From: Ignavibacteriota bacterium
GTDB taxonomy: Bacteria; Bacteroidota; Ignavibacteria; UBA10030
Assembly (NCBI GenBank): GCA_963727825.1
Contig: CAVSHO010000009.1
Location: 64,001 to 128,000, forward strand
DNA length: 64,000 nucleotides
Direction: 5' to 3'
Shown here: positions 7,219-32,621 of the stretch, in pieces
Layout of the letters: every line of letters begins with the position of its first letter
Numbering within the stretch: the stretch's first letter is position 1
Position numbers and translations under genes: made by a program
The notes under the pieces: generated by a model
What the model was told of the DNA's origin: nothing
What the model saw: only the letters and a program-made list of their open reading frames with translations
Database searches by the model: none

Positions 7219-7294
7219 ATCTACTCCTTCACTTTGATTTATTATATAGTTAAGTTTGAAAGATACATTCTCGCATTTTATCAGTTCAAACAAT

Positions 7295-7310
7295 ATTGAA
7301 CCGTTTTAAT
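7295..7310. promoter_or_regulatory. LacI-type operator upstream of xylA
   Basis: ATTGAACCGTTTTAAT, a near-palindrome with central CG, also found at 10162, 25448 and (variant) 25647. Confidence 0.75.
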
Positions 7311-10161: not shown

Positions 10162-10177
10162 ATTGAACCGTTTCAAT
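10162..10177. promoter_or_regulatory. LacI-type operator upstream of galM-xylB
   Basis: ATTGAACCGTTTCAAT; the 27-bp context AAGAACAATTGAACCGTTTYAATATTA is shared with 25441-25467. Confidence 0.78.
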
Positions 10178-10827: not shown

Positions 10828-12462
10828 ATGAAGAAAATTAAGGATATCGCTTCACAGTTGCATATCTCCGAGGATGATCTGATTCTCTATGGCAATTACA
10901 AAGCTAAAGTACCATTGAAATATATAGACAACAATAAACTAAGAAATAGCAATTTGATTCTGGTCTCAGCTATTTCTCCGACGCCCGCAGGAGAGGGAAA
11001 AACGACCATATCAATCGGTCTGACACAGGGAATGAATAGAATCGGAAAACAAACAACGGTCGTGCTGCGAGAACCTTCCCTTGGACCGGTCTTCGGAATG
11101 AAAGGTGGTGCGACAGGAAGCGGACATGCGCAGGTCGTTCCTATGGAAGACATCAATCTTCATTTCACCGGAGATTTTGCGACTATTGAGAAAGCACACA
11201 ATTTACTCGCTGCTCTGATAGACAATAACATTCAAAATAAAAAATATAATTTAGGAATTGATCCTCGAACAGTTCACTGGAAGCGAGTGATGGATATGAA
11301 CGATCGTTCGCTCAGAAAAATTATTGTTGGTCTTGGTGGAACTCTCTCGGGGATCCCGCGTGAAACTGGATTTGATATTACAGCTGCTTCGGAAGTCATG
11401 GCTATACTCTGCCTTGCGGAGAATCTTACCGACTTAAAGCGAAAATTGGGAAATATTTTCGTAGGATTTACTTTTGACAAGAACCCAATATATGCACGCG
11501 ATTTGAAAGCAAGCGGTGCAATGACCGCACTGTTAAAAGATACTATTATGCCCAATCTTGTACAAACCATTGAAGGAAATCCTGCAATTATTCACGGCGG
11601 TCCTTTTGCCAACATCGCACAAGGAACAAATAGCGTTGTTGCAACAAAGATGGGTTTATCTCTTTCAGATTATGCAGTTACAGAAGCTGGATTTGCATTT
11701 GATTTGGGAGCAGAAAAATTCTTTGATATAAAATGCGGTTATTCAGGATTATCGCCTAAAGCAGTCGTCCTTGTAGCAACGTTGAAAGCATTAAAATATC
11801 ATGGCGGTGCAGATTTAAAAACTGTTAACCAGCCGAATAAAGAAGCTTTGAAGAAAGGCCTGGGCAATCTCGAGAAACATATTGAAAACATTATTGCTTT
11901 CGGTATACGCCCGGCGGTTGCGATAAATAAATTTACCGCCGACACAGAAGAAGAGCTAAACATCGTAAAAGATAGGTGCAAAGAGCTTGGAGTGCCTGCA
12001 TCCATAGCAGATGTGTGGGGAAAGGGCGGTGAGGGTTCTATGGAGCTTGCAGAGATAGTCTGCGATATAGCAAAAAATTGCAAAAACAGATATATCCCAA
12101 CATATGATTGGAATTGGGATATTACGAAAAAAGTCGAAACCATTGCAAAAAATATTTATGGCGCAAAAGCAGTAGAGTATACAGCCAAAGCTAAAGCCGA
12201 TCTAGAAAAGATAGAGAAACTTGGTCTGGATAAACTTCCCGTGTGCATGGCAAAAACCCAGAACTCACTTTCCGATGATCCAAAACTACTTGGCAGGCCC
12301 CAAAACTTTCTGATAACAATAAGAGAAATTGAAGTTGCTGCCGGTGCTGGCTTTGTCATTCCGATCACGGGTGAAATAATGCGCATGCCGGGCCTTCCTG
12401 CTGTTCCGGCTGCCGAAAACGTCGATGTAGATGACAACGGAAAGATTACGGGATTATTCTAA
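10828..12462 (+). CDS. fhs: Formate--tetrahydrofolate ligase
   Basis: SPTPAGEGKTT, LREPSLGPVFGMKGGA, NLHFTGD, HGGPFANIAQG, TEAGF, MRMPGLP. Confidence 0.96.
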   Translation: MKKIKDIASQLHISEDDLILYGNYKAKVPLKYIDNNKLRNSNLILVSAISPTPAGEGKTTISIGLTQGMNRIGKQTTVVLREPSLGPVFGMKGGATGSGHAQVVPMEDINLHFTGDFATIEKAHNLLAALIDNNIQNKKYNLGIDPRTVHWKRVMDMNDRSLRKIIVGLGGTLSGIPRETGFDITAASEVMAILCLAENLTDLKRKLGNIFVGFTFDKNPIYARDLKASGAMTALLKDTIMPNLVQTIEGNPAIIHGGPFANIAQGTNSVVATKMGLSLSDYAVTEAGFAFDLGAEKFFDIKCGYSGLSPKAVVLVATLKALKYHGGADLKTVNQPNKEALKKGLGNLEKHIENIIAFGIRPAVAINKFTADTEEELNIVKDRCKELGVPASIADVWGKGGEGSMELAEIVCDIAKNCKNRYIPTYDWNWDITKKVETIAKNIYGAKAVEYTAKAKADLEKIEKLGLDKLPVCMAKTQNSLSDDPKLLGRPQNFLITIREIEVAAGAGFVIPITGEIMRMPGLPAVPAAENVDVDDNGKITGLF

Positions 12463-12496: not shown

Positions 12497-13369
12497 ATGA
12501 GCGTTGCAGGACTTACTATAATCGGCGAATCGATAAACGATTCGGTTCCATCTACTCACGAGCTTTTCGAAAAGAATGATATCGCCGGCATTATCGAGTT
12601 AGCAAAATCTCAAGCCGAAAGCGGTGCTGCCTATATCGACGTAAATGTCGGGCTACGTTCCCCTGGATTCATGGCGGATATTGTAAAAAAAATTCAGGAA
12701 CATATTTCTCTTCCGCTATCAATTGATACTCCAGATCCTGAAATAGCCGCTGCTGGATTGGAAGCTTACAATCCAGTGCTTGCCGGAAAGCGGAAACCGA
12801 TTCTGAACTCAATTTCCCAGGCACGGCTGCAAATGTTCGACATCTATAAGAGACAGCCATTCATTCCGATAATGCTCCTCACAGAGGGGGCAGAAAAAAG
12901 TGGCGATATTAAAATGAACAAAACTGCCGAAGAAACTTTCGCTACAGCAAAAATCATGATGCATATCGCACGCGAACGCATTAATGATGTAGAGAACAGC
13001 GAGCTGATTCTTGATCCGGGTATTATGCCAATCGGAAGTGATTCAGACGGAAATTTTAAGCGGCTGATAAATTCGATCAGGTTAATCCATGAAGATGCCG
13101 ATCTCAAGGGCGTGAATATGTCCGTCGGGCTTAGCAATTTTACTGTCATGTTGCCATCAAAACGCGCAGACGGTTCGCCGGTAAAAGGTCCGCTTGAAAG
13201 CGCTTTTTTAACAATGGCAATGCCCATGGGATTTAATACTATTATAGGTTCAGTGAAAAGGAAATATTCGATTCTTGCAGACGATCACCCAGCAATGCAG
13301 TGTTTAAAGGATGTGTTGGAATTAGAAGGTTATGATATCATTATGAGAGTTATGAGTTACTATTCTTAA
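12497..13369 (+). CDS. Pterin-binding methyltetrahydrofolate:corrinoid methyltransferase (AcsE / MT2 / MetH folate-domain-like)
   Basis: IIGESIN, YIDVN, LSIDT, ILNS, LDPG and VGLSN motifs of the DHPS-like pterin-binding barrel. Confidence 0.82.
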   Translation: MSVAGLTIIGESINDSVPSTHELFEKNDIAGIIELAKSQAESGAAYIDVNVGLRSPGFMADIVKKIQEHISLPLSIDTPDPEIAAAGLEAYNPVLAGKRKPILNSISQARLQMFDIYKRQPFIPIMLLTEGAEKSGDIKMNKTAEETFATAKIMMHIARERINDVENSELILDPGIMPIGSDSDGNFKRLINSIRLIHEDADLKGVNMSVGLSNFTVMLPSKRADGSPVKGPLESAFLTMAMPMGFNTIIGSVKRKYSILADDHPAMQCLKDVLELEGYDIIMRVMSYYS

Positions 13370-13395: not shown

Positions 13396-13854
13396 ATGCC
13401 GCTCGATTTTGTTACATCTGGAAAACCCCCAATATCACTCCGTGAACGGAAACTCTCCCGCTTCATGCTTTTTTTTGAGGACGTTGTAAAAGTTCCTCTA
13501 TTCGGTTGCCAGCATTGCGGTGAATGTATATTAGCTTCTACAGCTTTTATCTGCAGCCAAAGATGTCCTAAGCGGATACGCAACGGTCCATGCGGCGGTA
13601 CAGGCGAAGGAGGATCGTGTGAGGTGTTTCCGGAAAGAAAATGCGTATGGTACAGAATCTATTATCGGTCAAAATTGCTAAATCGTATCAGTTTGCTATA
13701 TCGCATAAAAAAAATACACAACTGGAATTTGGAAGGTACCTCAGCCTGGCTAAATCTATTCAAAAAGCGAATTGAGGCACCGACCTGGTTTCTCCGCAAT
13801 GATAAACAAAAGATAAAGGATATTATTTCCCGTGACACTCAAAGAAAAAATTGA
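13396..13854 (+). CDS. metV: MetV-like Cys-rich subunit of methylene-THF reductase
   Basis: CQHCGEC...IC.QRCPKRIRNGPCGG...CEV..ERKCVW; overlaps the metF start. Confidence 0.8.
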   Translation: MPLDFVTSGKPPISLRERKLSRFMLFFEDVVKVPLFGCQHCGECILASTAFICSQRCPKRIRNGPCGGTGEGGSCEVFPERKCVWYRIYYRSKLLNRISLLYRIKKIHNWNLEGTSAWLNLFKKRIEAPTWFLRNDKQKIKDIISRDTQRKN

Positions 13855-14728
13855 ATCAAATAGGTTCATTGTCTGCGGTGAGATAGGTCCACCCAAAAGC
13901 TGTGACGGCAATGTTATTCGGGAAAAGTCAAAGTACTTTAAAGGTCTTGTTGACGCAGTCAATATAACAGATAACCAAACGGCAGTTGTCAGTTTATCAA
14001 GTATTGCTTCAGCGAAGATATTGCTGGAGGAAGGCATCGAACCGATTATGCAAATGACATGCCGCGATCGGAACAGGATTGCAATCCAAAGTGATTTATT
14101 AGGTGCCGCTGCATTGGGCATCAACAATTTACTTTGTCTCACCGGCGATCATCAGAAATTCGGCGATCAACCCGAAGCTAAAGGCGTGTTCGATCTGGAT
14201 TCAATCCAACTAATTGCAACTGTTGCTAAAATGAACAGTGGTTTTTTCCTTTCCAATCAGGAAATGAAAAAAGCTCCGGATTTTCTCATCGGTGCCGCCG
14301 CAAATCCATTTGCCGAACCGTTTGAAATGCGGTTAATCCGTTTGCATAAGAAGGTAGAAGCCGGTGCGCGTTTCATACAAACTCAACCAGTGTTTCATAT
14401 GGAGGTTTTCAGGCGGTGGATGGAAAAAGTTGTCGAAATGGGACTGTATGAGAAATGCGCAATTCTTCCCGGTGTCATGCCAGTAAAATCGGAGAAAGTT
14501 TTGCTTCATATGAAAAAGGAAGTCCCTGGTGTAAAAATAAACGATGAATATATCAACCGCATGAAAGAAGCGCGCGATCCTAAAGAAGAAGGTATAAAAA
14601 TTGCAGTCGAAATGATTCAATCACTACAAAAGATAAAAGGCGTCCACGGTATCCATCTTATGCCCGTTATGTGGGAAAGCATCACTCCGATCATTATCAA
14701 AGAGGCAGGATTAGGAACGTTAAACTAA
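13832..14728 (+). CDS. metF: Methylenetetrahydrofolate reductase
   Basis: GEIGPPK, NITDNQ, QMTCRDRNRIAIQSDLLG, LCLTGD, KVEAGARFIQTQ. Confidence 0.92.
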   Translation: MTLKEKIESNRFIVCGEIGPPKSCDGNVIREKSKYFKGLVDAVNITDNQTAVVSLSSIASAKILLEEGIEPIMQMTCRDRNRIAIQSDLLGAAALGINNLLCLTGDHQKFGDQPEAKGVFDLDSIQLIATVAKMNSGFFLSNQEMKKAPDFLIGAAANPFAEPFEMRLIRLHKKVEAGARFIQTQPVFHMEVFRRWMEKVVEMGLYEKCAILPGVMPVKSEKVLLHMKKEVPGVKINDEYINRMKEARDPKEEGIKIAVEMIQSLQKIKGVHGIHLMPVMWESITPIIIKEAGLGTLN

Positions 14729-14870: not shown

Positions 14871-16023
14871 TCACTGAACTTTTTTAGCAAAGGCTTCTCC
14901 TGCATACTGCTGCATTTGAAAACCATTAACCTTGCCTGTCTTATCTTTCTCAAAATGAATCGATAAAAACTGACCTTTGATGTAAAAATCTTTCTCAGTT
15001 TCTGCATAGAATGGTATCTTCTGGTTTCCAGGAGCAATGCCAACAAGTTGATTATCTTCTCGTACTATTTTGATATGAAATTGAGGACTGATTTCGTACT
15101 CGCCAACATATTGATCCAATATTTTGTCATCAATTTTTAAACAAGGCTTTTCAAATACATACTGTAATCCTCTGTTAAATCCTTCAGGTTTTGTTCCTGA
15201 ATGTCCGGATCCCTTTATTACCGGAGCTTCTACCTCTAGGCCTTCAATATGATAATCTCTAATAGTTGCTGCCAGTTTTTCAAAACCGGGGACATTCTCA
15301 TATTCACCCATCATCGTATACAGTTTTATTGGATGTGATAATTTTACTTTTGAGAATTTCTCTGCATACTTGTACAACGAAGCATTATCCCATGTCCAAG
15401 CTGGACTTCCAGCGACATAATGATTGAATAAATCGGGTTCAGTAAAGAGAGTATATAAAGTGAACAAACCACCTAGCGAGTGCCCAACCAATGTGCGTTC
15501 ATTTTTCTTTGTTCGATATTTTGATTCAATAAAAGGAATCGCTTCATTCTTAATGAACGAGAGAAATTTTTCGGCATTGCCAAATTGCGATGGCTGACCA
15601 CTGTTAGTTGGTGTTAAATCAAAAGCACGTCGTTTATCATAATTCGGATTTTCACCGCCCCACGTAATACCGGCAATAATAGCTGCAGGCATAAATCCGT
15701 CATAATATTGATCTCCGTAAATAGCTGTTACTAATGAAAAATCCCACTGGCTATCTACTAAATAAATAACCGGGTATGTTTTACTCGTATCTTCATAATG
15801 CTGCGGCAAGTTTATATGGAGTTCGTATTCCTGTCCGGTAATAGCAGAATGAATTTTCAAGAAGCTGTGAGCCGGCAATTTCAACCTGAGGTGGTCGAAC
15901 AGATGAAGCATCTTTTGCCTGGCCAAAACTTTGAGCAGATAAGAGTAAAGATAAAAAGATGAAAACAAAGATTTTACCAATCTTATCAAAACTATTATTA
16001 TGAATTTTGTGCAATGTGTTCAT
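14871..16023 (-). CDS. Secreted alpha/beta-hydrolase esterase (IroE/CE1-like) with a C-terminal DUF3471-like domain; apparent +1 frameshift near 15860
   Basis: Signal peptide in the 15793..16023 frame; YPVIYLVD, RAFDLTP, GHSLGG nucleophile elbow, GSGH; LDQYVGEY C-terminal domain. Confidence 0.78.
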
Positions 16024-16136: not shown

Positions 16137-17006
16137 TCAAAATCCGGTGCTTACTTCCGGAATACGCTTAAGGAGATCCCGCATCTGTTCCTGGTTCTCC
16201 TGTCCAATGGTGAATGCATCTATACAATTGAGGCTAAGGACGTACCGGAGGCATTCATCAATCTGATGGCGAAGTTGACCAGCTCCAAAAATTTTCATCC
16301 CAACAATTCCCTTTCCATCTTTATGCATTCTTCGTAAGACTTTAACCACCGTTGGGACATCGGCATCCATTACCGCCCCCGCTTGGTTAATTCTGGCAAG
16401 ATCAACCTGCACCCAATCTGAATTGGCAGCCGCTTCTAACGCCTTCAAAGAATGGCAGGAAACACCATGTGCGTGAATAATTCCCTGTTCGCGCGCTTTA
16501 GCTAAATACTCCATCGCTCCTTGCTTTTGACCGGGCCAGTCTGCATCTGTCATCATGTGCAACAGGACTATATCGATATAGTCGACTCCAATTTCCTTCC
16601 GGAATCGATCCAGATCTTCCTGCATTTCGCTGGCATCAGTTGCATGGGTCTTTGTCAATATCACAACGTTACTGCGTGGCACTCGCTTGAGTGCCTCTTT
16701 CATATGAGGATGACTTCCGTATTGATCTGCCGAATCCCAAAAGTTTATTCCCTGATCATATGCAGCACATAGAAGATCCGCGACACCCTTCATACCAAGT
16801 TCCCGTGTCTGATCCGAATGATGGTTATATCCATTCGTACCTGTGCCCATTGCTAATCGCGAAACCTTTATGCCCGTCTTGCCAAGTGTGATAATATCAT
16901 TTGCATATTTCTTATCCTCCCCCATAGCAAAAATCTTTGCCGCTGGTGAAAAAGCCAGAGCACCAGCAGTGGCCGCAGTATATTTGAAAAATTCACGTCT
17001 TCTCAT
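16137..17006 (-). CDS. Aldo/keto reductase with Tat signal
   Basis: MRRREFFK twin-arginine leader; LGKTGIKVSRLAMGT, WDSADQYG, LTK, DYIDIVLLH, GVSCH, GMKIFG. Confidence 0.85.
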   Translation of the reverse strand: MRRREFFKYTAATAGALAFSPAAKIFAMGEDKKYANDIITLGKTGIKVSRLAMGTGTNGYNHHSDQTRELGMKGVADLLCAAYDQGINFWDSADQYGSHPHMKEALKRVPRSNVVILTKTHATDASEMQEDLDRFRKEIGVDYIDIVLLHMMTDADWPGQKQGAMEYLAKAREQGIIHAHGVSCHSLKALEAAANSDWVQVDLARINQAGAVMDADVPTVVKVLRRMHKDGKGIVGMKIFGAGQLRHQIDECLRYVLSLNCIDAFTIGQENQEQMRDLLKRIPEVSTGF

Positions 17007-17089: not shown

Positions 17090-18115
17090 TTATTTTCTCA
17101 CCGCTTCGATAAATGCTTTAATGTTTTCCGTACTAACTGCGGGCGGCATCCCTCCTCCGCAAGAAAAAATTACTTTAGATTTATCAATCAAAGAATTTAC
17201 TAGATCGATTGTTGTTTCTGTAACCTTGGCGGTATCGCTGCTTGCCAAAACATCGCGCGGAGGAATATTACCTACTAATGTTACTCTATTTTGGGTCAAT
17301 TGTTTCAATTCATTCAAAGAAATATCAAAACCCATATTGAATAGATTTACTCCTATCTCCGGTAGCATAGGTGCAGACACCTTGCAGGGGGCATCATTAT
17401 GCAAAAATTTGATAGAAACACTTGCATCAAATAATTCTTTGAAATATGGCAATCCGAAAGTGCGAAATTCTTCCTCCCCCATAAAACCGATTATATCGTC
17501 CAGCAAAAGAATCCCGTCGATGGATGGGAATGTTTCCATTTGCAGATTCAGCCAATCCTTAAGAAATAACGTGATTTTTTTCATTAGTGTTTCAGCTTTT
17601 TCCGGCTGCATCATCATCGTAGTCAAAAATTCTGTAGAGCCCATTAGATAACTGGCAATATTTAGAGGACCGCGGGCTACGGCAAATCGAATTTTATGCC
17701 CGGCTGCTTCAATTTTTGGTTGGGCAAGTCTTAAACGATTGAGCATGAATGGCAAAAGACCATCTGTTTTCGGGTTCGGCTGCAGAAGCGAATCTATATC
17801 ATCAACCGATTGGATAATTTTATGCGCATGCGGAAATTCGTTCATCGGGAATACGCAGCGTGCTCCAAACGCCGATGGTTCAGTACACATACCGAATTCA
17901 GACCAGAATCCTGGCAGAAACATTACCTCTGGAAAATCCTGGAGTGCTTTCAAATTTGCCTTCAACCATAATTCATCATTTGAAAAATAGTCAAGAATAT
18001 TAATGCCATACCAATTCGGTAACCATGGACAATCAATAATGAAACCCACCGGCAAAGGATTTAAAATTTCTCCCTTTATTATTTTCTGAAGCATTTCCCA
18101 TTGTTGATCTGTCAT
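17090..18115 (-). CDS. UroD/MtaA(CmuA)-superfamily protein, candidate substrate:corrinoid methyltransferase (MT1)
   Basis: TEPSAFGA, RGPLNIASYLMG, LLLDD, FLHND, LVGNIPP, FSCGGGMPP..STENIKAF. It lacks the WxMRQAGR motif of true HemE and sits in a corrinoid cassette. Confidence 0.75.
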   Translation of the reverse strand: MTDQQWEMLQKIIKGEILNPLPVGFIIDCPWLPNWYGINILDYFSNDELWLKANLKALQDFPEVMFLPGFWSEFGMCTEPSAFGARCVFPMNEFPHAHKIIQSVDDIDSLLQPNPKTDGLLPFMLNRLRLAQPKIEAAGHKIRFAVARGPLNIASYLMGSTEFLTTMMMQPEKAETLMKKITLFLKDWLNLQMETFPSIDGILLLDDIIGFMGEEEFRTFGLPYFKELFDASVSIKFLHNDAPCKVSAPMLPEIGVNLFNMGFDISLNELKQLTQNRVTLVGNIPPRDVLASSDTAKVTETTIDLVNSLIDKSKVIFSCGGGMPPAVSTENIKAFIEAVRK

Positions 18116-18194
18116 CCTACTTTCCCTTCATTCTTTTATGCAACGACCATTTCTATTTGCATATTACTATTTCTGTTTTTTACGGACTCAAACT

Positions 18195-18950
18195 TTATGA
18201 TTTGTGAATAGCACGTTCTGCTTTGGCGACGCGAATTGCTCTATATGTACAATCCTTCATACCGCATGTATCGCAGGTATAATCGACTCTTTTAACTGCT
18301 TTTCCGACACCTATAATCCCACTAACAGATTTAATCGGCACCATTAATGAAGATTCGGTCAGAGTGATTCCACAAAAATTAGCTGGAAAGAACGAAAATA
18401 GGAGTTGTTGTTCCGACACAGACCAATCGCAATAACCTGGACTGTACCTATTGGTAATTTTTAGTCCTTGTAACCGCATTTGCTTTTCGATGTGATCATG
18501 AAGCACATCAGTTGTCTGTTCTTCTGTTACCGATGCAACAATATCGACCATGTAACCTAACGTGGCATCACCGTCGGCAAACAATTTTTTTGCCCAGGTT
18601 TCCATCGCCCGGCCTATGGTACAGACAAACAACGCTGCCTTTTCGGATTTTCTGAGCTGGCTTGTAACAATCTTTTGTAATCTGAAAAATTTATTCCCGA
18701 TAATTAATCCATCATTTCGATCTTCGGTTTTTTTAACATCGAGAAGCCGATAGCCTGCTTGTATTTCACAATATTCTGGTAATCGAAAAAGAATATCATC
18801 GATCATTTCTTCAAAATGTGGCGGAATTGTTCCCTTCGTATATCCAAGAGCAGTCACGATTTCATTTTTACTAATTGATAGATCGCTGAAGTTAATTTTA
18901 ACTTCAAAAGTATCTTTCTCTCGTTCGATTTGTGGAAATATAATTTCCAT
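18195..18950 (-). CDS. Stand-alone B12-dependent methionine synthase reactivation (SAM-binding) domain protein
   Basis: FVCTIG, TNRYSPGYCDW, GITLTESSLMVPIKSVSGIIG, C-terminal CDTCGMKDCTYR. Confidence 0.85.
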   Translation of the reverse strand: MEIIFPQIEREKDTFEVKINFSDLSISKNEIVTALGYTKGTIPPHFEEMIDDILFRLPEYCEIQAGYRLLDVKKTEDRNDGLIIGNKFFRLQKIVTSQLRKSEKAALFVCTIGRAMETWAKKLFADGDATLGYMVDIVASVTEEQTTDVLHDHIEKQMRLQGLKITNRYSPGYCDWSVSEQQLLFSFFPANFCGITLTESSLMVPIKSVSGIIGVGKAVKRVDYTCDTCGMKDCTYRAIRVAKAERAIHKS

Positions 18951-19834
18951 CAGTGAACTCTAATTGCATGGACTAAACTCTGGATATGTGACGGCGTAGT
19001 ACCACAGCAACCACCGATAATATTCGCCCCGCTATTTATCAAATCCTGAACTTTTGCAGCCATCATTTCCGGTGTTTCCGGAAAATCCGTTTTACCATCT
19101 TGATAAATAGGCTTGCCTGCGTTGGCATGGACGAGGATAGGAGTTGATGGATCAATACTTCTGATTTCCTTTACTATGTCAATCATTTGATCGAATCCGT
19201 TTCCGCAATTCGTCCCGATGACACAAGCTCCAGCATCCTTAATCGCCTGGACCATTTCCGCAGGTGCAACTCCCATCATCGTACGGTATTCACCATTGAG
19301 GGTTTTTTCAAAAGTAAAGGTACATGCAATTTCCAAACCAGTAGATTCATGCGCTGCACGAACCGCGAGACACGCTTCATCAAGAGCAGACATAGTTTCT
19401 ACACAAATGGCATCTACGCCGCCTTTTTTAAGAGCTTCTGCTTGAATACAGAATCCGTCGTATAATGTCTCTTCAGATACTTGTCCCATCATCAACATGA
19501 TGCCAGTAGGACCGATGGAGCCAAGCACAAGATGATTTCCACCTGCTGCTTCTCTTGAGATAGCAGCAGCAGCTTCATTTAACTCGGAGGTACGATCTTG
19601 CAACCCATAATGCTCCAACTTAGACGGACTGCCGCCAAAACTGTTGGTGAGAATCATATCAGCACCGGCGTCGATATAACTATTGGCAATTGCAAACACA
19701 TCGTTGCGGTGAGTAACATTCCAAAGTTCCGGACATTCCCCGGGCTGTAAACCACGTTGATATAAAAATGTTCCCCAAGCACCATCGGAGATGAGGACTT
19801 TTTTTTCTTTTAGCGCCGTTAGAAGTAAACTCAT
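18950..19834 (-). CDS. Stand-alone homocysteine S-methyltransferase domain (MetH N-terminal module)
   Basis: SDGAWGT, AGADMILTNSFG, GSIGPTG, ETMS, GTNCG, ANAGKP, IGGCCGTTP (three Zn-binding Cys). Confidence 0.88.
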   Translation of the reverse strand: MSLLLTALKEKKVLISDGAWGTFLYQRGLQPGECPELWNVTHRNDVFAIANSYIDAGADMILTNSFGGSPSKLEHYGLQDRTSELNEAAAAISREAAGGNHLVLGSIGPTGIMLMMGQVSEETLYDGFCIQAEALKKGGVDAICVETMSALDEACLAVRAAHESTGLEIACTFTFEKTLNGEYRTMMGVAPAEMVQAIKDAGACVIGTNCGNGFDQMIDIVKEIRSIDPSTPILVHANAGKPIYQDGKTDFPETPEMMAAKVQDLINSGANIIGGCCGTTPSHIQSLVHAIRVH

Positions 19835-19903
19835 TCCTGATTTTCCCGATTACTTAAAAATTATTATCCTGTTGCCAAGGTGAGTTGTTTTTCTTTTATC
19901 AGG

Positions 19904-20572
19904 TTATGCAATACTAATTTTATCTAGAAATGCCACCGCACCCTGAGGATCATGAGAATAGCTATCTGCACCCATTTTCAAGGCAGCTTCCATAGTCAAA
20001 GGCGCACCGCCAACAATAATTTTCGTGTCTGGAAATTGTGTTTTAATTTCCTGAACTGTTTTCGACATATTGATCATAGTCGTCGTTAGCAAAGTGCTTA
20101 AACCGACTATGCAACCCGGAGTATTCCTGATCGTTTCTAAAAATTTGGCCGATTTAACATCGACACCCAAGTCTATTACTTCCCAGCCATTACCTTCGAT
20201 AACCATTCTGACAAGATTTTTGCCAATGTCATGCAAGTCGCCTGCGACAGTACCAAGCACAAATTTTCCCTTTGCTTTAATACTTCCCTTTTTGAAAAAT
20301 GGTTCAAGATGAACCATTACAACCTGCATCGCTTTAGCTGCCATTAATAGTTCAGGAACAAATACTTCGTTTCTACTGAACCGTTCCCCGATCCGCTGCA
20401 TTCCATCGTTGCATGCTTTTAGAATAATATCAGGGCCCACTCCTTCTAATAATGCTTGCTTTGTCAATTCATCCGCACCTTCCTGATTTTTTAAATCGGG
20501 TGGATATGGGGCAATCTTGTTAACCTTTCCTCGTTCAATGCATAAACTAATTCTATCAACCAATTCACTCAT
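19904..20572 (-). CDS. Corrinoid (cobalamin-binding) protein, cap plus B12 domain
   Basis: GMQRIGERF..NEVFVPELLMAA, GDLHDIGKNLV (DxHxxG), DLGVDV, GLSTL, IVGGAP. Confidence 0.92.
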   Translation of the reverse strand: MSELVDRISLCIERGKVNKIAPYPPDLKNQEGADELTKQALLEGVGPDIILKACNDGMQRIGERFSRNEVFVPELLMAAKAMQVVMVHLEPFFKKGSIKAKGKFVLGTVAGDLHDIGKNLVRMVIEGNGWEVIDLGVDVKSAKFLETIRNTPGCIVGLSTLLTTTMINMSKTVQEIKTQFPDTKIIVGGAPLTMEAALKMGADSYSHDPQGAVAFLDKISIA

Positions 20573-20637
20573 GTCGAATTCCTTTTGCTATATCGATACT
20601 AGATTTTTCTTAGTTTAAAATTGTGGATCAATAATAT

Positions 20638-22347
20638 CTATTTATATACCTCGTCATTCCCTTGGTACTCAAACCAATCATAATTTGCTATGTTCTTGCT
20701 CATCTGGCCCAGTGAAGTAGCGTACATTGCGTACATAGAACCAACAAATCCACCGGCAATCCGCGTACTTAAGAATGTGGCATCAACATTGTCCTTAAGC
20801 AAATTCCATTGATTGTATATCGAGGAATAGAAAAATGCATACGTGTTTCCCCGTGCTTCAATTTTTAAGTACACTGCTTTTTCGGACATTTCTTTAGAAA
20901 GTTTTTGAGATGCCAAGAGTTCCATAGTGTTGCGTTTAGATCCGGTTCCCGATTTATACAATTGAACCACCGGCTCATTTTCATCAACCGACTCACAAAG
21001 AAAGTAAAAATGTTCTTCATTTTGGAAAACTAACAGACCGGCTTTTTCATTACTTCCCTGAGGGGAGAATTCTAAGGCGACGCTTGCAGACCCATATGCA
21101 TGCTGTTGACGTCTGCCAATAAAACTCGGGTTCTTAATTCCAGAACACATTTCTGGCCTTACCTTGATCGATAGAAATCCCTTCTTACTCTCAAGATTAT
21201 ACCAACTTTCATGTGGAGTTCTCAGGAAGACCCAATCCGGATGAAGTTTTGGCTGATCAAATTCATCTCTGAGAATGAAATTACCGCTGTACGGATGAGA
21301 ATCTTCATCGATGGATGATTGCATTGGATATGGATACGAATACTGAACCAATTCGTAGTCAGGGTTGATAACCGGCCAGCCATCCTTCCATTTTACTGGC
21401 GCTAGAAATGTCTCTCGGCCAATATTCGTATAACCCTCTTCAACAGGTGGATAGGGCCTGGAACCTAAAAAGACCGACCACCAATCTCCAGCATTTGTCT
21501 GCACAAAGTCGGCATGCCCGGTACAGGTTATGGGAAATTTCCGTTTGGGATCCAAATGCCGCTGAGTAAGAATTGGATTTTTCTGATATGGAATATATGG
21601 ACCTTCCACCTTTGTACTTCTAAAAACCACTTCTGAATGCTGATCTGCCGTTCCACCTTCCGCTGCTATAAGATAATAGAATCCATCTTTCTGAAATATG
21701 TGAGGTCCCTCGATCCAGACCGGTTTCTTTGAAATATCAACCCCACCATTTACTAGTAATATTTCTTCTCCCATCGTCTTGAGGCTGTCAAAATCGAATG
21801 CACGCATTCTGATCGTCCGATGGCCGTCATAGAGAGACCTATCATTTGGCGGTATACTATTATAGAGTATGTAGGCATTCCCGTTTTTATCGAAAAACAA
21901 TGAGGGGTCTATACCGTTGATTTGCGGCAGCCAGACGGGGTTGGACCATGGTCCTGCAGGATTTTTTGCTGTAATAACAAAATTCCCGCCTATATCTACC
22001 AATGTGCAGGTAATATAATAGAGTCCTTTATGATGCCGAATAGCTGGTGCAAAAATGCCGCGAGATACACCTTGGCCATCGAGATTCAATTGTTCCACTC
22101 GATTCATTGCATGACCAATGAGCTTCCAATGCACTAAATCCTTACTGTGGAAGACCGGGATACCGGGGAAATATGAAAATGACGAGTTCACTAAATAATA
22201 ATCCGTCCCGACCCTGCAAATACTCGGATCTGGATAGAAGCCAGCAAGAATTGGATTCGTGAATCCCTTTTTATCCTGCGCAGATGAATTGCAGCATAGA
22301 ATGAAAAAGAGTATGAAGAAGACTGTTCGCATAATTAATCGATCCAT
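20638..22347 (-). CDS. GH43 beta-xylosidase/arabinofuranosidase with C-terminal beta-sandwich, secreted
   Basis: NPILAGFYPDPSICR, IFAP, IDPSLF, WIEGPH, AEGGT, GHAD, GRETFL; signal peptide. Confidence 0.92.
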   Translation of the reverse strand: MDRLIMRTVFFILFFILCCNSSAQDKKGFTNPILAGFYPDPSICRVGTDYYLVNSSFSYFPGIPVFHSKDLVHWKLIGHAMNRVEQLNLDGQGVSRGIFAPAIRHHKGLYYITCTLVDIGGNFVITAKNPAGPWSNPVWLPQINGIDPSLFFDKNGNAYILYNSIPPNDRSLYDGHRTIRMRAFDFDSLKTMGEEILLVNGGVDISKKPVWIEGPHIFQKDGFYYLIAAEGGTADQHSEVVFRSTKVEGPYIPYQKNPILTQRHLDPKRKFPITCTGHADFVQTNAGDWWSVFLGSRPYPPVEEGYTNIGRETFLAPVKWKDGWPVINPDYELVQYSYPYPMQSSIDEDSHPYSGNFILRDEFDQPKLHPDWVFLRTPHESWYNLESKKGFLSIKVRPEMCSGIKNPSFIGRRQQHAYGSASVALEFSPQGSNEKAGLLVFQNEEHFYFLCESVDENEPVVQLYKSGTGSKRNTMELLASQKLSKEMSEKAVYLKIEARGNTYAFFYSSIYNQWNLLKDNVDATFLSTRIAGGFVGSMYAMYATSLGQMSKNIANYDWFEYQGNDEVYK

Positions 22348-22351
22348 TTTT

Positions 22352-25300
22352 TTACCTTCCTGTATTTGATCTAAGTGCTCCGTAAAAACTTTCAGGAGGA
22401 CCCAAATAGCATTGTTTCACACCGCCTGTATTCACGACAACCTTTTGAAGAACAACACCGGGGTCAACCATCCAGATCTTCAACACGTGATAACCGGGCT
22501 TAGCAATTTTATGAGTTGAATGACTGTAGCGTGCGTTGTCTGCAACCGATTTCTCCCAGTCCATGTTCCCGTGCATCGCACTGAAATTGGCCGGTACCAG
22601 TGTGACGAGTTGCGGTGCCTCTGCATCAAACGAAATTGCATATCGAAGCTCGCGACCGGGTATAAAATTTAACGTCGGGGAATTAATTGTACAAACGTCA
22701 AATGTCCCGGGCTTAAATAAATACATTTGATATTCCAGACATGGTGCATCTATTCCCGGAACAGCGCTGCTCGCATTTGCCGGAGCCACAGCCCTCATCG
22801 CAGATAAAGTATTTCCATAATCTTCAATGTTCATCCATTGCCTAGAGCCAACATCTATTTTCTTCATATAATGCTCGGCTTCTATCGAAATAAAACCTTC
22901 TCCTTCAACGAAACCCTGCAATGAATCACGAGTCATCTCTGTCGGATAAAAAACGTCTATCTTTACATTGACCTCGCTATTTGTACCGATGATTTTTAAA
23001 GAACCAGTACATTTACCTTTTGGTACACTGCTCCAATCTATGTTAACCCAAATACGTTTATCTTTTTCTATAGTGCCCTTGAATTCGCTGAGCAATATCC
23101 ATGAGTCGCTGGCAATAGCACTGAACTCAAATGGTATTTTGCCTTTATTAAATACGTCAACATAATGATGCTGTTGATTGAATACATCGAATGAAGGCAG
23201 TACAGCTTCGGTTTGCGAATTAGGCCAAGATTCTTCAGAACCATCTACGGCAACACCCATGGCCGATGTATCCGGTACAGAAATCTCTGTTAGCTTGATT
23301 GCTCGCAGACTATTTTTTGGCGGATCCTGCCAACTTGTATAACCCAAATGTGTTTGATCCATAAAGTGATTCCATTTGCCATTAGCAAACGTGCGATTGA
23401 AATAACCCATTAAACTCGTATCTGCCTGGAATAAATCACGAGTTCTACTCGCCATGTCGTTTGTGCTGACTCGACCTTGATGTGCATATAAAACATTTTT
23501 ACCAGCAGTAAAGTACAATTCGTTCACCAATGCACTGGCTTTTGTGGGAAACAACACCAATTCATAAAATGCGTCACGCTTGTTTTCAGGCAACTTGCCC
23601 GAAATTTCTTCAGCCTTTTTAGTGAGCGTATTAAAATCTGCTACAACTTTTTCCGCTTCCTGATAATTGACTAAGCTGTAAGTTGTCGGACTGAGTAATT
23701 CGGGTTTCCGTCGCCCATTGTATTTTGTGTACTTAGAAAGAATGTCTGCAATTTCTTTGGCATAGGTTGATCCAAATTCCCGCTCAGCCCAGAGCCTTGT
23801 ATATTCACCGATATTATCGTTCTTCCACCTCTCCGTGTTCCAGGCAAGATCCATAAAATATTCTAGCGGAAACTCAAGGCCCTTGAAGTGACCGACGTTC
23901 ACAATCCATATCCTATCGGCACCATATTGTTTGGCAAGTGACATCTGATCCCATATTTTGGGAATCGGATTGGTGTTGACCCATTGGTAGTTTCTGGGCC
24001 CGCCGTGATAGTCGAAGTGATAATAGATTCCTGCACCACCCTGCCGTTTGTTTTCTTCAACAGTCGGCAGACGACGAACATTACCCCAATTATCCTCAGC
24101 CCACAAGAGCGTCACATCGTCGGGAACGCGAAAGCCCTCGTTGTAGTAAGCCAGTACTTCCTTATAGGGACACCATAGTTGGGGTACCTTAGTCACATCT
24201 TTATTTATTTCCTGTTCAATTATACTCCGCTGATCATTTATGATATTTGTCAACAAGTCCATGCTTTGAGCATCTGTACCGCCCGGGATCATTTCCGTAT
24301 CATTTTCTCCCCGCAAGCCTATAGTAATGATGCTCTCATATTTTTTATTACGCCTGATACCTTCACGCCAAAAGTTTTTAAGAACATCCGGATGTTGGGC
24401 ATAATTCCATGGTCCTACCGTTTTAAAGTAGCGTCGATCCCACTCTTTCTGCGCTCTGAGCATAGGTTCTTGATGCGAATTACCCATAACAATCCCATAT
24501 TCATCTGCAAGTCGGGGATTTTCCGGATCGTCTTCATTAAAAGCATTATTCCACATGGCCGGCCAGAGATAATTTCCTTTCAGCCTGAGGATCAACTCAA
24601 ACAACTTTTCATAAAACTGATGATTGTAATTGGCAACACCCGCCGGTATTGGCGGATTTTCGCTTGGAGGAATTGTACCAAATTTTTCAGTAATCCAATT
24701 AGTAAGATCCGGATATTCATCGTTGAGAAAGATTCCTCGATATTTAACGGAAGGCGGTCCTTGTACATATTTACCAGGGATCACAAAAAGGGCATCTTTA
24801 TGTTCTATGGAAACATCCGCCCACCAATACCAGGGAGAGACACCTATCTTTTTCGAAAGGTCATATATTCCATAAATTGTTCCCCGTTTATCACTACCGG
24901 CAATGACAAGTGCTCGTTTGATATGTGGAAACGGATTTTCTACAACTTGGATAAGAAAGGATTCCCATTTTCCCGATATATCATTGACAACGAGTTTCTT
25001 TTCTTTTATCAATCTATCGATAAGCTCGTTCTTCCCTAATGTACCAATTAACACTACTTCCCTTGCTCGTGGCAAGGAGTCGAAACTAAAGGCCGGTTCC
25101 CGCGATGTAACCTTTTTGATATCACTTTGCAAATGCCTTGCAGCCAGAACTATTCCTGGAAAATCTTTCGAGCTAATTATAATGGACGCAACACTTTCAG
25201 CAGATGAGATGGAATAATTGTTGTTTTGTTTTTCAAATTTAATATATGCTGTTTGTTCTTGGGCTTGCATTTTCCCGACTATAGATAGTCCAAGAAAACT

Positions 25301-25381
25301 CATGAGATATATGAAATGCAGCGAATTCTTCAGATATGTGTTATTTTTAAAGTTATAGCCAGAAAATTTTAATGGGGGCAT
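22352..25381 (-). CDS. GH115 xylan alpha-1,2-(4-O-methyl)glucuronidase
   Basis: GSDKRGTIYG, GVSPWYWWAD, YRGIFLNDE, LRLKGNYLWPAMW, SHQEPM, DNWG, YYHFDYHGGPRNYQW, WIVNVG, MVDPGVVLQK. Confidence 0.92.
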   Translation of the reverse strand: MPPLKFSGYNFKNNTYLKNSLHFIYLMSFLGLSIVGKMQAQEQTAYIKFEKQNNNYSISSAESVASIIISSKDFPGIVLAARHLQSDIKKVTSREPAFSFDSLPRAREVVLIGTLGKNELIDRLIKEKKLVVNDISGKWESFLIQVVENPFPHIKRALVIAGSDKRGTIYGIYDLSKKIGVSPWYWWADVSIEHKDALFVIPGKYVQGPPSVKYRGIFLNDEYPDLTNWITEKFGTIPPSENPPIPAGVANYNHQFYEKLFELILRLKGNYLWPAMWNNAFNEDDPENPRLADEYGIVMGNSHQEPMLRAQKEWDRRYFKTVGPWNYAQHPDVLKNFWREGIRRNKKYESIITIGLRGENDTEMIPGGTDAQSMDLLTNIINDQRSIIEQEINKDVTKVPQLWCPYKEVLAYYNEGFRVPDDVTLLWAEDNWGNVRRLPTVEENKRQGGAGIYYHFDYHGGPRNYQWVNTNPIPKIWDQMSLAKQYGADRIWIVNVGHFKGLEFPLEYFMDLAWNTERWKNDNIGEYTRLWAEREFGSTYAKEIADILSKYTKYNGRRKPELLSPTTYSLVNYQEAEKVVADFNTLTKKAEEISGKLPENKRDAFYELVLFPTKASALVNELYFTAGKNVLYAHQGRVSTNDMASRTRDLFQADTSLMGYFNRTFANGKWNHFMDQTHLGYTSWQDPPKNSLRAIKLTEISVPDTSAMGVAVDGSEESWPNSQTEAVLPSFDVFNQQHHYVDVFNKGKIPFEFSAIASDSWILLSEFKGTIEKDKRIWVNIDWSSVPKGKCTGSLKIIGTNSEVNVKIDVFYPTEMTRDSLQGFVEGEGFISIEAEHYMKKIDVGSRQWMNIEDYGNTLSAMRAVAPANASSAVPGIDAPCLEYQMYLFKPGTFDVCTINSPTLNFIPGRELRYAISFDAEAPQLVTLVPANFSAMHGNMDWEKSVADNARYSHSTHKIAKPGYHVLKIWMVDPGVVLQKVVVNTGGVKQCYLGPPESFYGALRSNTGR

Positions 25382-25447: not shown

Positions 25448-25463
25448 ATTGAACCGTTTTAAT
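25448..25463. promoter_or_regulatory. LacI-type operator upstream of the GH115 operon
   Basis: ATTGAACCGTTTTAAT; on the minus strand it directly follows TTACCT-N17-TAATAT. Confidence 0.78.
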
Positions 25464-25646: not shown

Positions 25647-25662
25647 ATTATACCGGTTCAAT
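25647..25662. promoter_or_regulatory. Variant operator upstream of lacI (autoregulation)
   Basis: ATTATACCGGTTCAAT (reverse complement ATTGAACCGGTATAAT), following TATTAT, 15 bp before the ATG. Confidence 0.65.
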
Positions 25663-25677: not shown

Positions 25678-26709
25678 ATGAAAAAGATTACTATCGATGA
25701 TGTTGCTAAGAGAGCAAACGTTTCCAAGGGAACTATCTCTGCAGTCATCAATGCAAAAAACACTGTTAGGCCGGTTACACGTGATCACATTTTAGAAACG
25801 ATGAAAGAACTTAACTTTCGTCCGAAGGGTGTTGCAAGGAACCTCAAAAACGGAAATCAGGATAAATGCATTGGTATTATTATTAAGGATATTAATTATC
25901 CATTCTATACATCCATCGCGTCCGGAGTGTGTGATTTTGCCAAAACGATGGGGTATTCAGTCATTATAACAAGTTCTGAAAATGATCACGCATCTGAGAA
26001 AAGATTTTCACATCTTTTTTCCGCAAAAGATATCAAAGGAGCTATTATTGCTCCTATCGTAGAAGGGACAGCGGAAATTGAACACTTGTTCAAACTGAAG
26101 ATGATCAACTATCCTTTCGTCTTACTGGAAGATGTTAAGGGCATACAGGCCAACGTGGTAGCAATCGATAATCTTAGAGCTATAAAAAAGGCGGTCAAGT
26201 ATCTTATTGAAAGCGGCCATAAAAATATCGTGCATTTTGCCGGCCCTCCAGAATCCTCGCATACTCAAGAGCGCATTGAGGGATTCCGCCATGCATTCAG
26301 TGAAAGCACTCTAGTTTTCAATGAAGATATGATTGTCTCAGTTGGATCGATATATGAAGAAAGTCATTCAAAAACGATCGAGTTTTTTAAGAATAGAAGT
26401 CGCGAGAACTTCCCAACGGCTATCGTTTGCTTCAATGACCAGCAAGCTCTTGCAGTCTTGACTGGTTTGAAGGAATTGAGCATCAAAGTGCCGGAAGAAA
26501 TTTCTGTCATTGGCAATGATGATATTTATTATGCCAAGATTTATCCAGTCCCGCTGACGACAATTCGGGCTCCCCAGCACGAGATCGGCTATCGAGCTGC
26601 AGAGATTTTAATCAGGAATATAGAATCTTCGGTACTGTTACCGAATGAAAAAGTAATTCTCGATACAGAATTTATAATACGAGAATCATCAAGGGTACTG
26701 AATAAATAA
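25678..26709 (+). CDS. LacI-family transcriptional regulator
   Basis: ITIDDVAKRANVSKGTISAVIN helix-turn-helix; PTAIVCFND, VPEEISVIGNDD, PLTTI. Confidence 0.93.
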   Translation: MKKITIDDVAKRANVSKGTISAVINAKNTVRPVTRDHILETMKELNFRPKGVARNLKNGNQDKCIGIIIKDINYPFYTSIASGVCDFAKTMGYSVIITSSENDHASEKRFSHLFSAKDIKGAIIAPIVEGTAEIEHLFKLKMINYPFVLLEDVKGIQANVVAIDNLRAIKKAVKYLIESGHKNIVHFAGPPESSHTQERIEGFRHAFSESTLVFNEDMIVSVGSIYEESHSKTIEFFKNRSRENFPTAIVCFNDQQALAVLTGLKELSIKVPEEISVIGNDDIYYAKIYPVPLTTIRAPQHEIGYRAAEILIRNIESSVLLPNEKVILDTEFIIRESSRVLNK

Positions 26710-31740: not shown

Positions 31741-32619
31741 TCAATGCACATTGCTCGCGGCTTTTAGTGTATTCTTCATAAGCATCGCGACAGTCATTAA
31801 GCCGACGCCGCCGGGGACAGGCGTAATTGCCTTCGCGACTTTTGATGCAGATTCGAAATGCACATCACCGACAATACTATATCCTTTCGGCGAAGAAGCA
31901 TCTTCTACTCGATTAATACCGACATCGATGATGACAACACCCGGCTTTAACATTGCACCGGTGATAAATTCCGGTTTACCAATGGCGGCAATAAGAATGT
32001 CTGCAGATTTGATATAGGCTGTGAGATCAGAAGCGCCCGTGTGCGCTACAGTCACGACTGCATTTGCGCCGCGCTGTTTTTGTAATAAGATATTCGCAAT
32101 TGGTTTGCCGACTATATTGCTGCGGCCGACAATAACAACGTGCTTTCCCGATGGATCATTTCCGCTTCGAATGAGAAGCTCTTGGATACCTGCTGGTGTG
32201 CAGGATTTAAATGTATCAAGTCCGATAACTAATTTTCCAATGCTCATAGGATGGAAACCATCCACATCCTTTCGCGGATCAATCGCTTCAATCACTTTCT
32301 GTTCGTTAATGTGCTTTGGAAGAGGAAGCTGAACAAGTACACCATGGATTTTTGAGCTGTGGTTGAATTCGCTAATCTTATCCAGCAATGCTTGTTCGGA
32401 AATAGTTGCAGGCATAATTTCAGTAATAGAATAAAAGCCTATTGCTTCACATGCCTTCCCTTTCGATTTTACATACGATTGCGATGCCGGATTATCCCCA
32501 ACGAGAATGACTGCAAGTCCCGGCACAATGCCATTTGTTTCTTTTAAACGCCGAGTTTCTTCTTTTATTTCACGCTTGATATCCTCGGCAATTTTCTTTC
32601 CGTCTATAATCTCAGCCAT
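31741..32619 (-). CDS. folD: Methylenetetrahydrofolate dehydrogenase/cyclohydrolase
   Basis: IIDGKKIA, LVQLPLP, KDVDGFHP, CTPAG, VGRSNIVGKP, IDVGIN, ITPVPGGVG. Confidence 0.96.
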   Translation of the reverse strand: MAEIIDGKKIAEDIKREIKEETRRLKETNGIVPGLAVILVGDNPASQSYVKSKGKACEAIGFYSITEIMPATISEQALLDKISEFNHSSKIHGVLVQLPLPKHINEQKVIEAIDPRKDVDGFHPMSIGKLVIGLDTFKSCTPAGIQELLIRSGNDPSGKHVVIVGRSNIVGKPIANILLQKQRGANAVVTVAHTGASDLTAYIKSADILIAAIGKPEFITGAMLKPGVVIIDVGINRVEDASSPKGYSIVGDVHFESASKVAKAITPVPGGVGLMTVAMLMKNTLKAASNVH

Positions 32620-32621
32620 GC

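Follow-up and report, generated by a model that had tools for sequence, protein, structure and literature searches.

A candidate corrinoid-dependent O-demethylation operon for 4-O-methyl-D-glucuronate behind a GH115 α-glucuronidase gene in an Ignavibacteriota genome

The MtgBCDE system of Ruegeria pomeroyi, a split methionine synthase and glycine betaine demethylase that has been tested experimentally (Mausz et al. 2025; PMC12478193), is composed of separate corrinoid (PF02310), pterin (PF00809), and homocysteine (PF02574) polypeptides, and an additional methyltransferase (MT1), specific for its substrate, loads this corrinoid protein with a methyl group from catabolism. The MtvABC, OdmABCD, Vdm, Mto, and Cdm systems combine an MT1 of the UroD superfamily with a small corrinoid protein and a pterin-type second methyltransferase (MT2) acting on tetrahydrofolate (THF) (PMC13222342). 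The UroD fold and a corrinoid partner are also found in the MtaA/MtbA proteins and in the Mlp clusters of non-methanogens (Kountz and Balskus, PMC10418091). In this study, a 64,000-nucleotide stretch of an Ignavibacteriota genome (the window, G000:C9:64001-128000; genome of 3.12 Mb in 14 contigs, 96.8% complete) was analyzed, in which a minus-strand run of genes behind a glycoside hydrolase family 115 (GH115) α-glucuronidase gene encodes a UroD-fold protein, P0001, together with parts of the split-MetH type. The run is read as a corrinoid-dependent system for the O-demethylation of 4-O-methyl-D-glucuronate (MeGlcA), in which a UroD-fold MT1 would pass the methyl group by way of these parts to homocysteine or THF; this reading is given about an even chance of being right.

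Gene identities were assigned by matches to Pfam profiles, with NCBIfam equivalog models as a second check. Like MtgBCDE, the closest tested design, the locus encodes separate corrinoid, pterin, and homocysteine polypeptides, a putative additional MT1 that would charge the shared corrinoid protein with a catabolic methyl group, and a MetF paralogue beside the pterin protein for the oxidation of methyl-THF, and in both cases the host is neither an acetogen nor a methanogen. The Mtg MT1 belongs to the MttB superfamily (PF06253) and acts on a quaternary amine, whereas the candidate MT1 here is a UroD-fold protein (PF01208) in a glycoside hydrolase operon, and reactivation would fall to a stand-alone PF02965 protein. 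Furthermore, the genome encodes a canonical MetH-type frame of 1177 residues (contig C8) and a second S-methyl_trans match in a 656-residue frame (contig C7); because of these, the operon module is regarded as accessory and not as the housekeeping methionine synthase. The homocysteine, cap/cobalamin, and S-adenosylmethionine (AdoMet) activation modules of MetH were recognizable in the operon, each with its motif. In contrast to MetH, they were single-module proteins, the pterin module was absent from the operon, with a UroD-fold gene in its place by Pfam, and the NCBIfam metH scores (43–154 bits) were far under the cut-off of 1011.

The clustering of MT1, MT2, MetVF, and corrinoid protein seen in the Mtv, Odm, Vdm, Mto, and Cdm group was repeated in a related locus, L031. 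The known substrates of this group, which includes the closest MT1 relatives by kind (the aromatic O-demethylases and CdmB), are methoxylated aromatics or haloalkanes and include no carbohydrate methyl ether (PMC13222342), activation is carried out by an ATP-dependent enzyme, the hosts are mainly Bacillota acetogens, and zinc-free MT1s (CdmB and MtvB) are documented. The present genome differed in that no match to a RACo-type activase (PF14574) was found in its 96.8%-complete sequence, a MetH-type PF02965 protein being present instead, and in the remoteness of P0001 from these MT1s. P0001 differed from MtaA/MtbA and from the Mlp proteins in its low NCBIfam scores, in zinc-site cysteines that were not conserved, and in a context of glycan degradation instead of sulfur or selenium metabolism. 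An identity with the Mlp clusters was considered and rejected, because those clusters belong to a different clade, contain zinc-type SCMT-like proteins, and occur in a sulfur/selenium context (PMC10418091). Open-access and bioRxiv full text yielded no paper tying GH115, methylglucuronate, or sugar methyl ethers to corrinoid proteins, and no description of an oxygen-free bacterial removal of the MeGlcA methyl group. A demethylase that unblocks a methylated sugar inside a polysaccharide degradation locus is known from marine bacteria, in which a cytochrome P450 acts on 6-O-methyl-D-galactose; that enzyme is oxygen-dependent, releases formaldehyde, and is unrelated in fold and cofactor.

The genes for GH115, GH43, the corrinoid protein, the homocysteine methyltransferase (HcyMT), the reactivation protein (Act), and P0001 formed one minus-strand run of open reading frames (ORFs) located where an earlier note on this DNA had placed them, and the Pfam assignments agreed (Table 1). 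The successive intergenic gaps from GH115 to the UroD-like gene were 4, 65, 69, -1, and 79 bp, within the bound of about 80 bp that the note had claimed. Its further claim that no terminator was evident also held, since a simple terminator scan placed no minus-strand site in any gap and its five minus-strand sites were all intragenic. The GH115 gene was the sole GH115 match in the genome, and P0001 was the only PF01208 match over the cut-off. Hydrophobic signal-like N-termini were present on GH115 and GH43, and the N-termini of the four methyl-transfer proteins were without a signal-like or Tat-like (twin-arginine translocation) segment.

Each of the three modules beside P0001 carried the expected sequence features. 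The corrinoid protein contained GDLHDIG, which we take to be the DxHxxG motif in its usual role; its NCBIfam matches to MtgC/pyl_corrinoid were below the cut-off. The PF02574 protein contained a cysteine in GTNCG and a Cys-Cys pair in GGCCG, presumably the zinc-binding triad, and its NCBIfam BHMT/MetH matches were likewise below the cut-off. The PF02965 protein contained RYSPGY (RxxxGY), assumed here to be the AdoMet reactivation motif, and a C-terminal CxxCx4C motif (CDTCGMKDC; within 18195-18300), possibly a ligand site for a metal or for an iron-sulfur cluster through which electrons would enter.

A folate-dependent one-carbon (C1) cluster of genes for formate-THF ligase, a pterin-binding protein, MetV, and MetF, to which the earlier note makes no reference, was convergent with the run at a distance of 1.5–4 kb. 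The best NCBIfam match of the pterin protein was the methyl-THF:corrinoid methyltransferase (108 bits, below the cut-off of 259), and its gene was located on the opposite strand, outside the operon. Among the 80 related loci described below, a pterin gene adjoined the UroD-like gene in three, including L031 and L009. The gene order in L031 was UroD-Pterin-MetV-MetF-CP (L031:10001-14124; CP, corrinoid protein), a folate-linked version without the homocysteine module. The operon and the convergent cluster are proposed to form a demethylase-like set composed of MT1, corrinoid protein, two MT2 proteins (for folate and homocysteine), reactivation, and C1 oxidation, and the pterin/MetVF/formate-THF ligase cluster is probably a second methyl sink, larger than homocysteine. 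A substrate-side role for P0001 fits this composition, in which the acceptor side is already represented by two modules.

The AlphaFold2 model of P0001 had a pLDDT (predicted local distance difference test) of 96, and a Foldseek search gave template modeling (TM) scores of 0.79 to HemE and 0.78 to MtaA (4ay7). A profile search of solved structures matched HemE (E 1e-19), MtaA (E 3e-13), and CdmB (E 1e-8) but no aromatic O-demethylase MT1. The NCBIfam models also assigned P0001 to none of the named families, with 62 bits for HemE (TIGR01464; cut-off 303) and 37–63 bits for MtaA/MtbA (cut-offs 235–600). Residue conservation was examined in 12 full-length relatives with 31–56% identity, in which H239-N240-D241, D28, D207, and three tryptophans were invariant. 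Across these 12 relatives no cysteine was conserved, including at the positions of the MtaA-type zinc site, which we take to be His-x-Cys ... Cys; H239-N240-D241 was found instead.

The P0001 family was large. In a word-based search, 7999 of 8000 candidates had E values of 0.001 or less and the best 120 were 79–100% identical; the nearest protein relatives were from metagenome-assembled genomes (MAGs) of Bacteroidota or Ignavibacteria. A representative library gave 1416 matches at E ≤ 0.001, 115 of them at E ≤ 1e-30. Relatives 58–90% identical to P0001 occurred across records of Ignavibacteriota, Verrucomicrobia, Spirochaetales, Chitinispirillaceae, KSB1, and Calditrichota (L009–L088), and this high identity across phyla points either to horizontal spread or to very strong constraint. 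Antisense to the UroD-like gene runs a long open frame, at 17121-17651 (+) in the window and, for example, at L079:9992-11032 (-). The frame reached 346 residues in relatives, had no Pfam match, and is most likely a shadow ORF.

The complex of P0001 with the corrinoid protein was predicted from their own alignments (50 rows for the UroD-like protein and 20 rows for the corrinoid protein). The complex score was 0.72, compared with 0.13 for the best of three controls. Among solved complexes, 58 of 80 attained this mark, as did 2 of 110 mismatched pairs, a comparison that is rough since own alignments were used here. The runs agreed in at least 75% of contacts, with a pLDDT of at least 91 for the partner. 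In the predicted interface, the barrel mouth of the UroD-like protein faced the corrinoid protein at its cap helix and DxHxxG loop. A physical pairing of the candidate MT1 with the corrinoid protein is thus predicted. That the pass reflects a structure already known to the predictor seems less likely, because the equivalent Cdm complex was modeled and not solved (PMC13222342). The interface was conserved at 0.78 against a protein average of 0.73 in module-adjacent copies, and at 0.60 against 0.67 in the others.

In order to compare gene neighborhoods, one genome per species was scanned, which gave at least 598 matching stretches, and the best 80 (58–90% identity) were analyzed. Their records were titled Ignavibacteriota, Bacteroidota, Chitinispirillaceae, Verrucomicrobia/Opitutaceae, Spirochaetales, KSB1, Neomarinimicrobiota, Calditrichota, and others, and the titles of related records describe MAGs from peat, fen, soil, and sediment. 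The neighborhood was defined as 10 kb to which a crude ORF caller (longest non-overlapping ORFs) was applied, and neighbors were labeled by blastp against the window proteins and 20 cluster representatives with Pfam names, a procedure that may miss divergent family members. The UroD-like gene was left uncalled in 9 of the 80 loci, and in six of these the antisense shadow ORF was picked ('unk346').

At least one xylan gene was located in the neighborhood of the UroD-like gene in 38 loci, with GH10 in 21, GH115 in 16, GH43 in 12, GH8 in 8, GH30 in 7, and GH67 in 4; UxaC or UxuA was found in 9, and an esterase in 8, downstream of the UroD-like gene. The α-glucuronidase genes (GH115 or GH67), found in 20 loci, always shared the strand of the UroD-like gene and were within 450 bp of it in 8. 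When the comparison was restricted to the 39 loci with full flanks, GH115 or GH67 was present in 14 and some xylan gene in 24. The corrinoid protein, HcyMT, or Act adjoined the UroD-like gene in 29/80 loci, mainly in the order CP-HcyMT-Act-UroD, which was kept in loci labeled as Ignavibacteriota, Chitinispirillaceae, Spirochaetota, and Bacteroidales. No corrinoid module was located near 12 of the 20 α-glucuronidase loci. In five genomes with GH115-UroD adjacency and no module nearby, a stand-alone corrinoid protein (41–55% identical) was encoded elsewhere in all five, and an Act-like match in three. A GH2 gene was found within 10 kb in four loci (L060, L068, L073, and L082); in L060, L068, and L073 it immediately adjoined the UroD-like gene. 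For the one copy checked, that of L073, the closest solved structure was of the β-glucuronidase/galacturonidase type (E 2.8e-192). One unlabeled neighboring ORF was RACo.

A second setting of the P0001 family was observed in four Bacteroidales loci (L064, L065, L078, and L079), in which a pentapeptide-repeat protein gene, one further gene, the UroD-like gene, a DUF6807 gene, and a GFO/IDH/MocA oxidoreductase gene followed one another, with no adjoining glycoside hydrolase.

The association was also followed at the level of whole genomes in a class sample of 151 genomes, with carriers of the UroD-like gene called at E ≤ 1e-40. Since related genomes are not independent, the figures are counts to which no statistical test was applied. 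The UroD-like gene was carried by 15 genomes and GH115 by 15, with both in 13, whereas GH115 was found in 2 of the 136 non-carriers. Of the 13 genomes carrying both genes, 11 had them at most 50 kb apart on one contig, and the carriers spanned six family labels. Act-like genes were found in 22 of the 151 genomes, in 12 of the 15 carriers compared with 10 of the 136 genomes lacking the UroD-like gene. Of five further genomes, G367, G273, and G339 had both genes, G296 had GH115 only, and G303 had neither. In a phylum sample of 301 genomes, all 10 matches to the UroD-like gene fell in the class of the window. The co-occurrence with GH115 or GH67 that the earlier note had proposed as a check was found among the related loci, and co-occurrence with GH115 in the class sample.

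In hardwood xylan and many other xylans, MeGlcA is the principal acidic substituent, which makes it one of the most abundant methylated sugars on land. Its methyl ether would block the usual uronate pathway because a later aldol cleavage needs a free 4-OH, as judged from the known isomerase pathway. In the proposed mechanism, GH115 and GH43 would trim glucuronoxylan oligomers outside the cytoplasm to give MeGlcA, which would be taken up and bound, as such or as a close downstream uronate, by the cytoplasmic UroD-fold protein. This protein would present the methyl ether to the Co(I) of the corrinoid protein, yielding methyl-Co(III) and glucuronate, and the UxaC route would then be open to the glucuronate. 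Two exits are proposed for the methyl group: through the PF02574 protein to homocysteine and methionine, or through the MeTr-like pterin protein to THF and then by MetVF, FolD, and formate-THF ligase to formate and ATP. The bulk would probably go to THF and on to formate. Oxidized Co(II) would be rescued by the MetH-type AdoMet-dependent activation protein and not by an ATP-dependent RACo, and a LacI-type repressor, common with the xylose genes, appears to control the whole set.

The most economical account would be a corrinoid demethylase with the UroD-fold protein as its MT1, and the substrate would be the product common to GH115, GH67, and GH2 uronidases, a (4-O-methyl)glucuronate. The proposal of the earlier note, that the UroD-like protein moves the 4-O-methyl group onto the corrinoid, gained partial support from the glucuronidase linkage, the adjacency to corrinoid modules, and the predicted complex, the MT1 role, the substrate, and the homocysteine end being inferred. 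More broadly, and with somewhat less confidence than is placed in the reading of this locus, the P0001 family may be a general oxygen-independent carbohydrate methyl-ether demethylase of anaerobic and microaerobic glycan degraders. It would act on the 4-O-methyl group of glucuronate set free from xylan (by GH115/GH67) and possibly from gums (by GH2 uronidases), and the methyl group would travel through a B12 protein to methionine and the folate C1 pool.

If the reading of this locus is true, the system would be the first corrinoid-dependent carbohydrate demethylase and would show that UroD-fold MT1s can act on alkyl as well as aryl methyl ethers. Plant-polymer breakdown in peat and sediment communities would be tied to B12 demand and to the production of methionine and formate, and the enzyme could be used for making unmethylated glucuronate from xylan. 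If the family is general, polysaccharide degraders of peat, sediment, and gut would have in these methyl groups a hidden supply of methionine, reducing power, and formate, and would need B12 to use hardwood xylan.

Several observations weigh against a MeGlcA demethylase. To our knowledge, all characterized UroD-fold O-demethylases cleave aryl methyl ethers. Aryl methyl ethers have a good phenolate leaving group, and the alkyl methyl ether of a sugar is harder to cleave; the main chemical doubt is the cleavage of such an ether by Co(I) without a strong activating group. One speculative answer is that the invariant His/Asn/Asp residues, together with a neighboring carboxylate, hold a metal or an acid that activates the ether; candidate residues for activating its oxygen are H239-N240-D241, D206-D207, E73, and three arginines. 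The Cdm system did not demethylate methoxylated alcohols (PMC13222342). By stoichiometry, methionine alone could not absorb one methyl group per MeGlcA, and UxuA (PF03786) was not found in the 96.8%-complete genome. For P0001, neither fold nor profile searches can distinguish methyltransferases from decarboxylases, and the predicted interface residues were no more conserved than P0001 overall (0.67 vs 0.69).

The distribution of the genes also includes exceptions. No xylan gene was located within 10 kb in 42 of the 80 loci, many of which are on short contigs, or in 15 of the 39 loci with full flanks. The 55 unlabeled immediate neighbors of at least 150 residues were heterogeneous, the top Pfam families having two members each. 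Among the carriers, G057 and G087 had no GH115. Neither GH115 nor GH67M was found in G057. In G087, the UroD-like gene (G087:C1:2709001-2710021) was broken into two pieces with two internal TGA codons, and GH67M was present. Conversely, GH115 was found without the UroD-like gene in G050, G051, and G296, with GH67M present in the first two and not found in G296. In addition, the carriers G017, G028, and G070 had no Act-like match, and none was found in G001 and G005, two of the five genomes with GH115-UroD adjacency.

Three other explanations were considered, each of which is weakened by the linkage data. The first is a folate-independent split methionine synthase, whose UroD-fold module would take a methyl group from a small non-sugar donor, such as methanol from esters, methylated sulfur compounds, or S-methylmethionine, and whose placement in a xylan locus would reflect methionine economy during growth on plant matter. 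The parts are indeed those of MetH, apart from the pterin module, which is replaced in the operon, Act-like genes occurred in 10 class genomes without the UroD-like gene, and Mlp-type UroD homologues have been proposed to act on methyl-sulfur or methyl-selenium compounds (PMC10418091). However, the genome already has the MetH-type frame and a second frame with a homocysteine methyltransferase domain, the thiol-activating cysteine positions of the MtaA type are absent from P0001, and the 12 α-glucuronidase loci without a module pair the UroD-like gene with GH115 or GH67 in the absence of any MetH-like gene. The co-occurrence with GH115 in the class sample is also not expected of a general methionine route, and this explanation is considered unlikely.

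The second explanation is that P0001 is a cofactor-free enzyme of (methyl)glucuronate, such as a decarboxylase or an enzyme that eliminates methanol, and that the adjoining B12 module has a separate function. Its fold and sequence are as near to true uroporphyrinogen decarboxylases as to MtaA, and in our alignment the acidic residue E73 lies near the region of what is presumably the catalytic Asp of HemE. The same explanation would accommodate the 12/20 α-glucuronidase loci that lack a corrinoid module and the missing Act-like matches in two of the five tested genomes and three class carriers, and GH88/GH105-like genes were nearby in five loci. Against it stand the conserved CP-HcyMT-Act-UroD order across four taxonomic labels, the complex score against its control, and the stand-alone corrinoid protein in all five genomes without an adjacent module, and it fits poorly with L031, where the UroD-like gene is set inside a Pterin-MetVF-CP cluster, and with a HemE score far under its cut-off. 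A cofactor-free role is accordingly held to be improbable.

The third explanation is that the system demethylates xylan-associated methoxylated aromatics, either ferulate released by the operon esterase or lignin-derived vanillate and syringate, and is co-regulated with the xylan genes. The chemistry would be easier, as is generally known, and a PF00756 esterase closes the run and follows the UroD-like gene in 8/80 loci. All characterized O-demethylase MT1s of the UroD superfamily (MtvB, OdmB, VdmB, and MtoB) use methoxylated aromatics (PMC13222342, PMC10418091). The explanation is nevertheless of low probability, because the gene tracks α-glucuronidases (20/80 loci, 8 directly adjacent) and uronate genes and not the esterase, the esterase is much nearer to the IroE/BES type (E 1e-23, its closest solved relatives) than to feruloyl esterases (E 2.6e-6), no phenolic-acid genes were recognized among the neighbors of the related loci, and the solved-structure search with P0001 returned CdmB and no aromatic MT1.

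The word TTGAACCGNT was found in 4 copies in the window, compared with 0.62 expected, and 1 of 100 shuffles reached 4. The four sites were all intergenic, located before xylA, a mutarotase gene, GH115, and a divergent LacI-family gene, and were embedded in a longer common AATTGAACCGTTTTAATA-like word, which supports an operator common to the xylose and xylan genes. A LacI-like gene was near the UroD-like gene in 16 of the 80 related loci. A search of sequencing runs listed 12 of DNA type and none of RNA. The earlier note had the run start at a promoter carrying a xylan-regulon operator. The operator-like word was located upstream of GH115; the promoter was not recovered, since a sigma-70 scan of the window performed no better than shuffles (38 found, 32.5 expected) and identified none for the run. 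All NCBIfam matches of the LacI-family regulator were below the cut-off.

Table 1. Features of the run and of related genes in the window, in order of position.
Feature	Position	Strand	Basis or remark
Sister operator-like sites	7296-7305, 10163-10172, 25652-25661 (minus strand)		Word scan of window
Formate-tetrahydrofolate ligase	10828..12462	+	Pfam FTHFS, E 2.7e-250
Stand-alone pterin-binding methyltransferase, MeTr/AcsE-like	12497..13369	+	Pfam Pterin_bind (PF00809)
MetV-like (13396-13854) and MetF (13832-14728)	13396..14728	+	Pfam DUF5981 (MTHFR C-terminal), MTHFR; NCBIfam
PF00756 esterase with DUF3471, last gene of run	14871..15989	-	Pfam
Aldo/keto reductase, next in run	16137..17006	-	Pfam Aldo_ket_red
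UroD-fold protein P0001	17090..18115	-	Pfam URO-D (PF01208), E 8.3e-35
MetH-type reactivation (AdoMet-binding) protein	18195..18950	-	Pfam Met_synt_B12 (PF02965), E 1.5e-11
Homocysteine S-methyltransferase, MetH module-3/MtgE-like	18950..19834	-	Pfam S-methyl_trans (PF02574), E 9.4e-67
Stand-alone corrinoid protein, cap and Rossmann B12 domain	19904..20572	-	Pfam B12-binding_2 (PF02607), B12-binding (PF02310)
GH43, β-xylosidase/arabinofuranosidase type	20638..22347	-	Pfam Glyco_hydro_43, GH43_C2
GH115 α-glucuronidase	22352..25381	-	Pfam Glyco_hydro_115, E 3.9e-150; GH115_C
Operator-like word TTGAACCGTT	25449..25458	+	Upstream of GH115
LacI-family regulator	25678..26709	+	Pfam LacI, Peripla_BP_3/1; divergent from GH115 operon
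FolD methylene-THF dehydrogenase/cyclohydrolase	31741..32643	-	Pfam THF_DHG_CYH, THF_DHG_CYH_C; in window, non-adjacent

The run extended past the UroD-like gene on the same strand, beyond the six genes listed in the earlier note, with the aldo/keto reductase gene after 83 bp and the esterase gene after a further 147 bp, and the order UroD-aldo/keto reductase-esterase recurred in L011 and L016. The aldo/keto reductase had a Tat-like N-terminus (RRREFF) and, judging from this motif, is probably exported.

Three further features of the window were noted. The xylose isomerase gene (5898-7305, minus strand) was split by a frameshift near 7039-7055, with the first ~55 residues in the frame 7039-7305 and the remainder in 5898-7055. 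The NCBIfam match covered profile positions 56–435 only, and the split may be an assembly error or a pseudogene. A ROK-family protein of 681 residues was encoded at 26749-28794 (minus strand), with the first ~360 residues lacking a Pfam match. A B12-binding radical SAM (AdoMet) protein with DUF4070 was encoded at 30194-31681 (plus strand), and similar genes were located near the UroD-like gene in L048 and L085.

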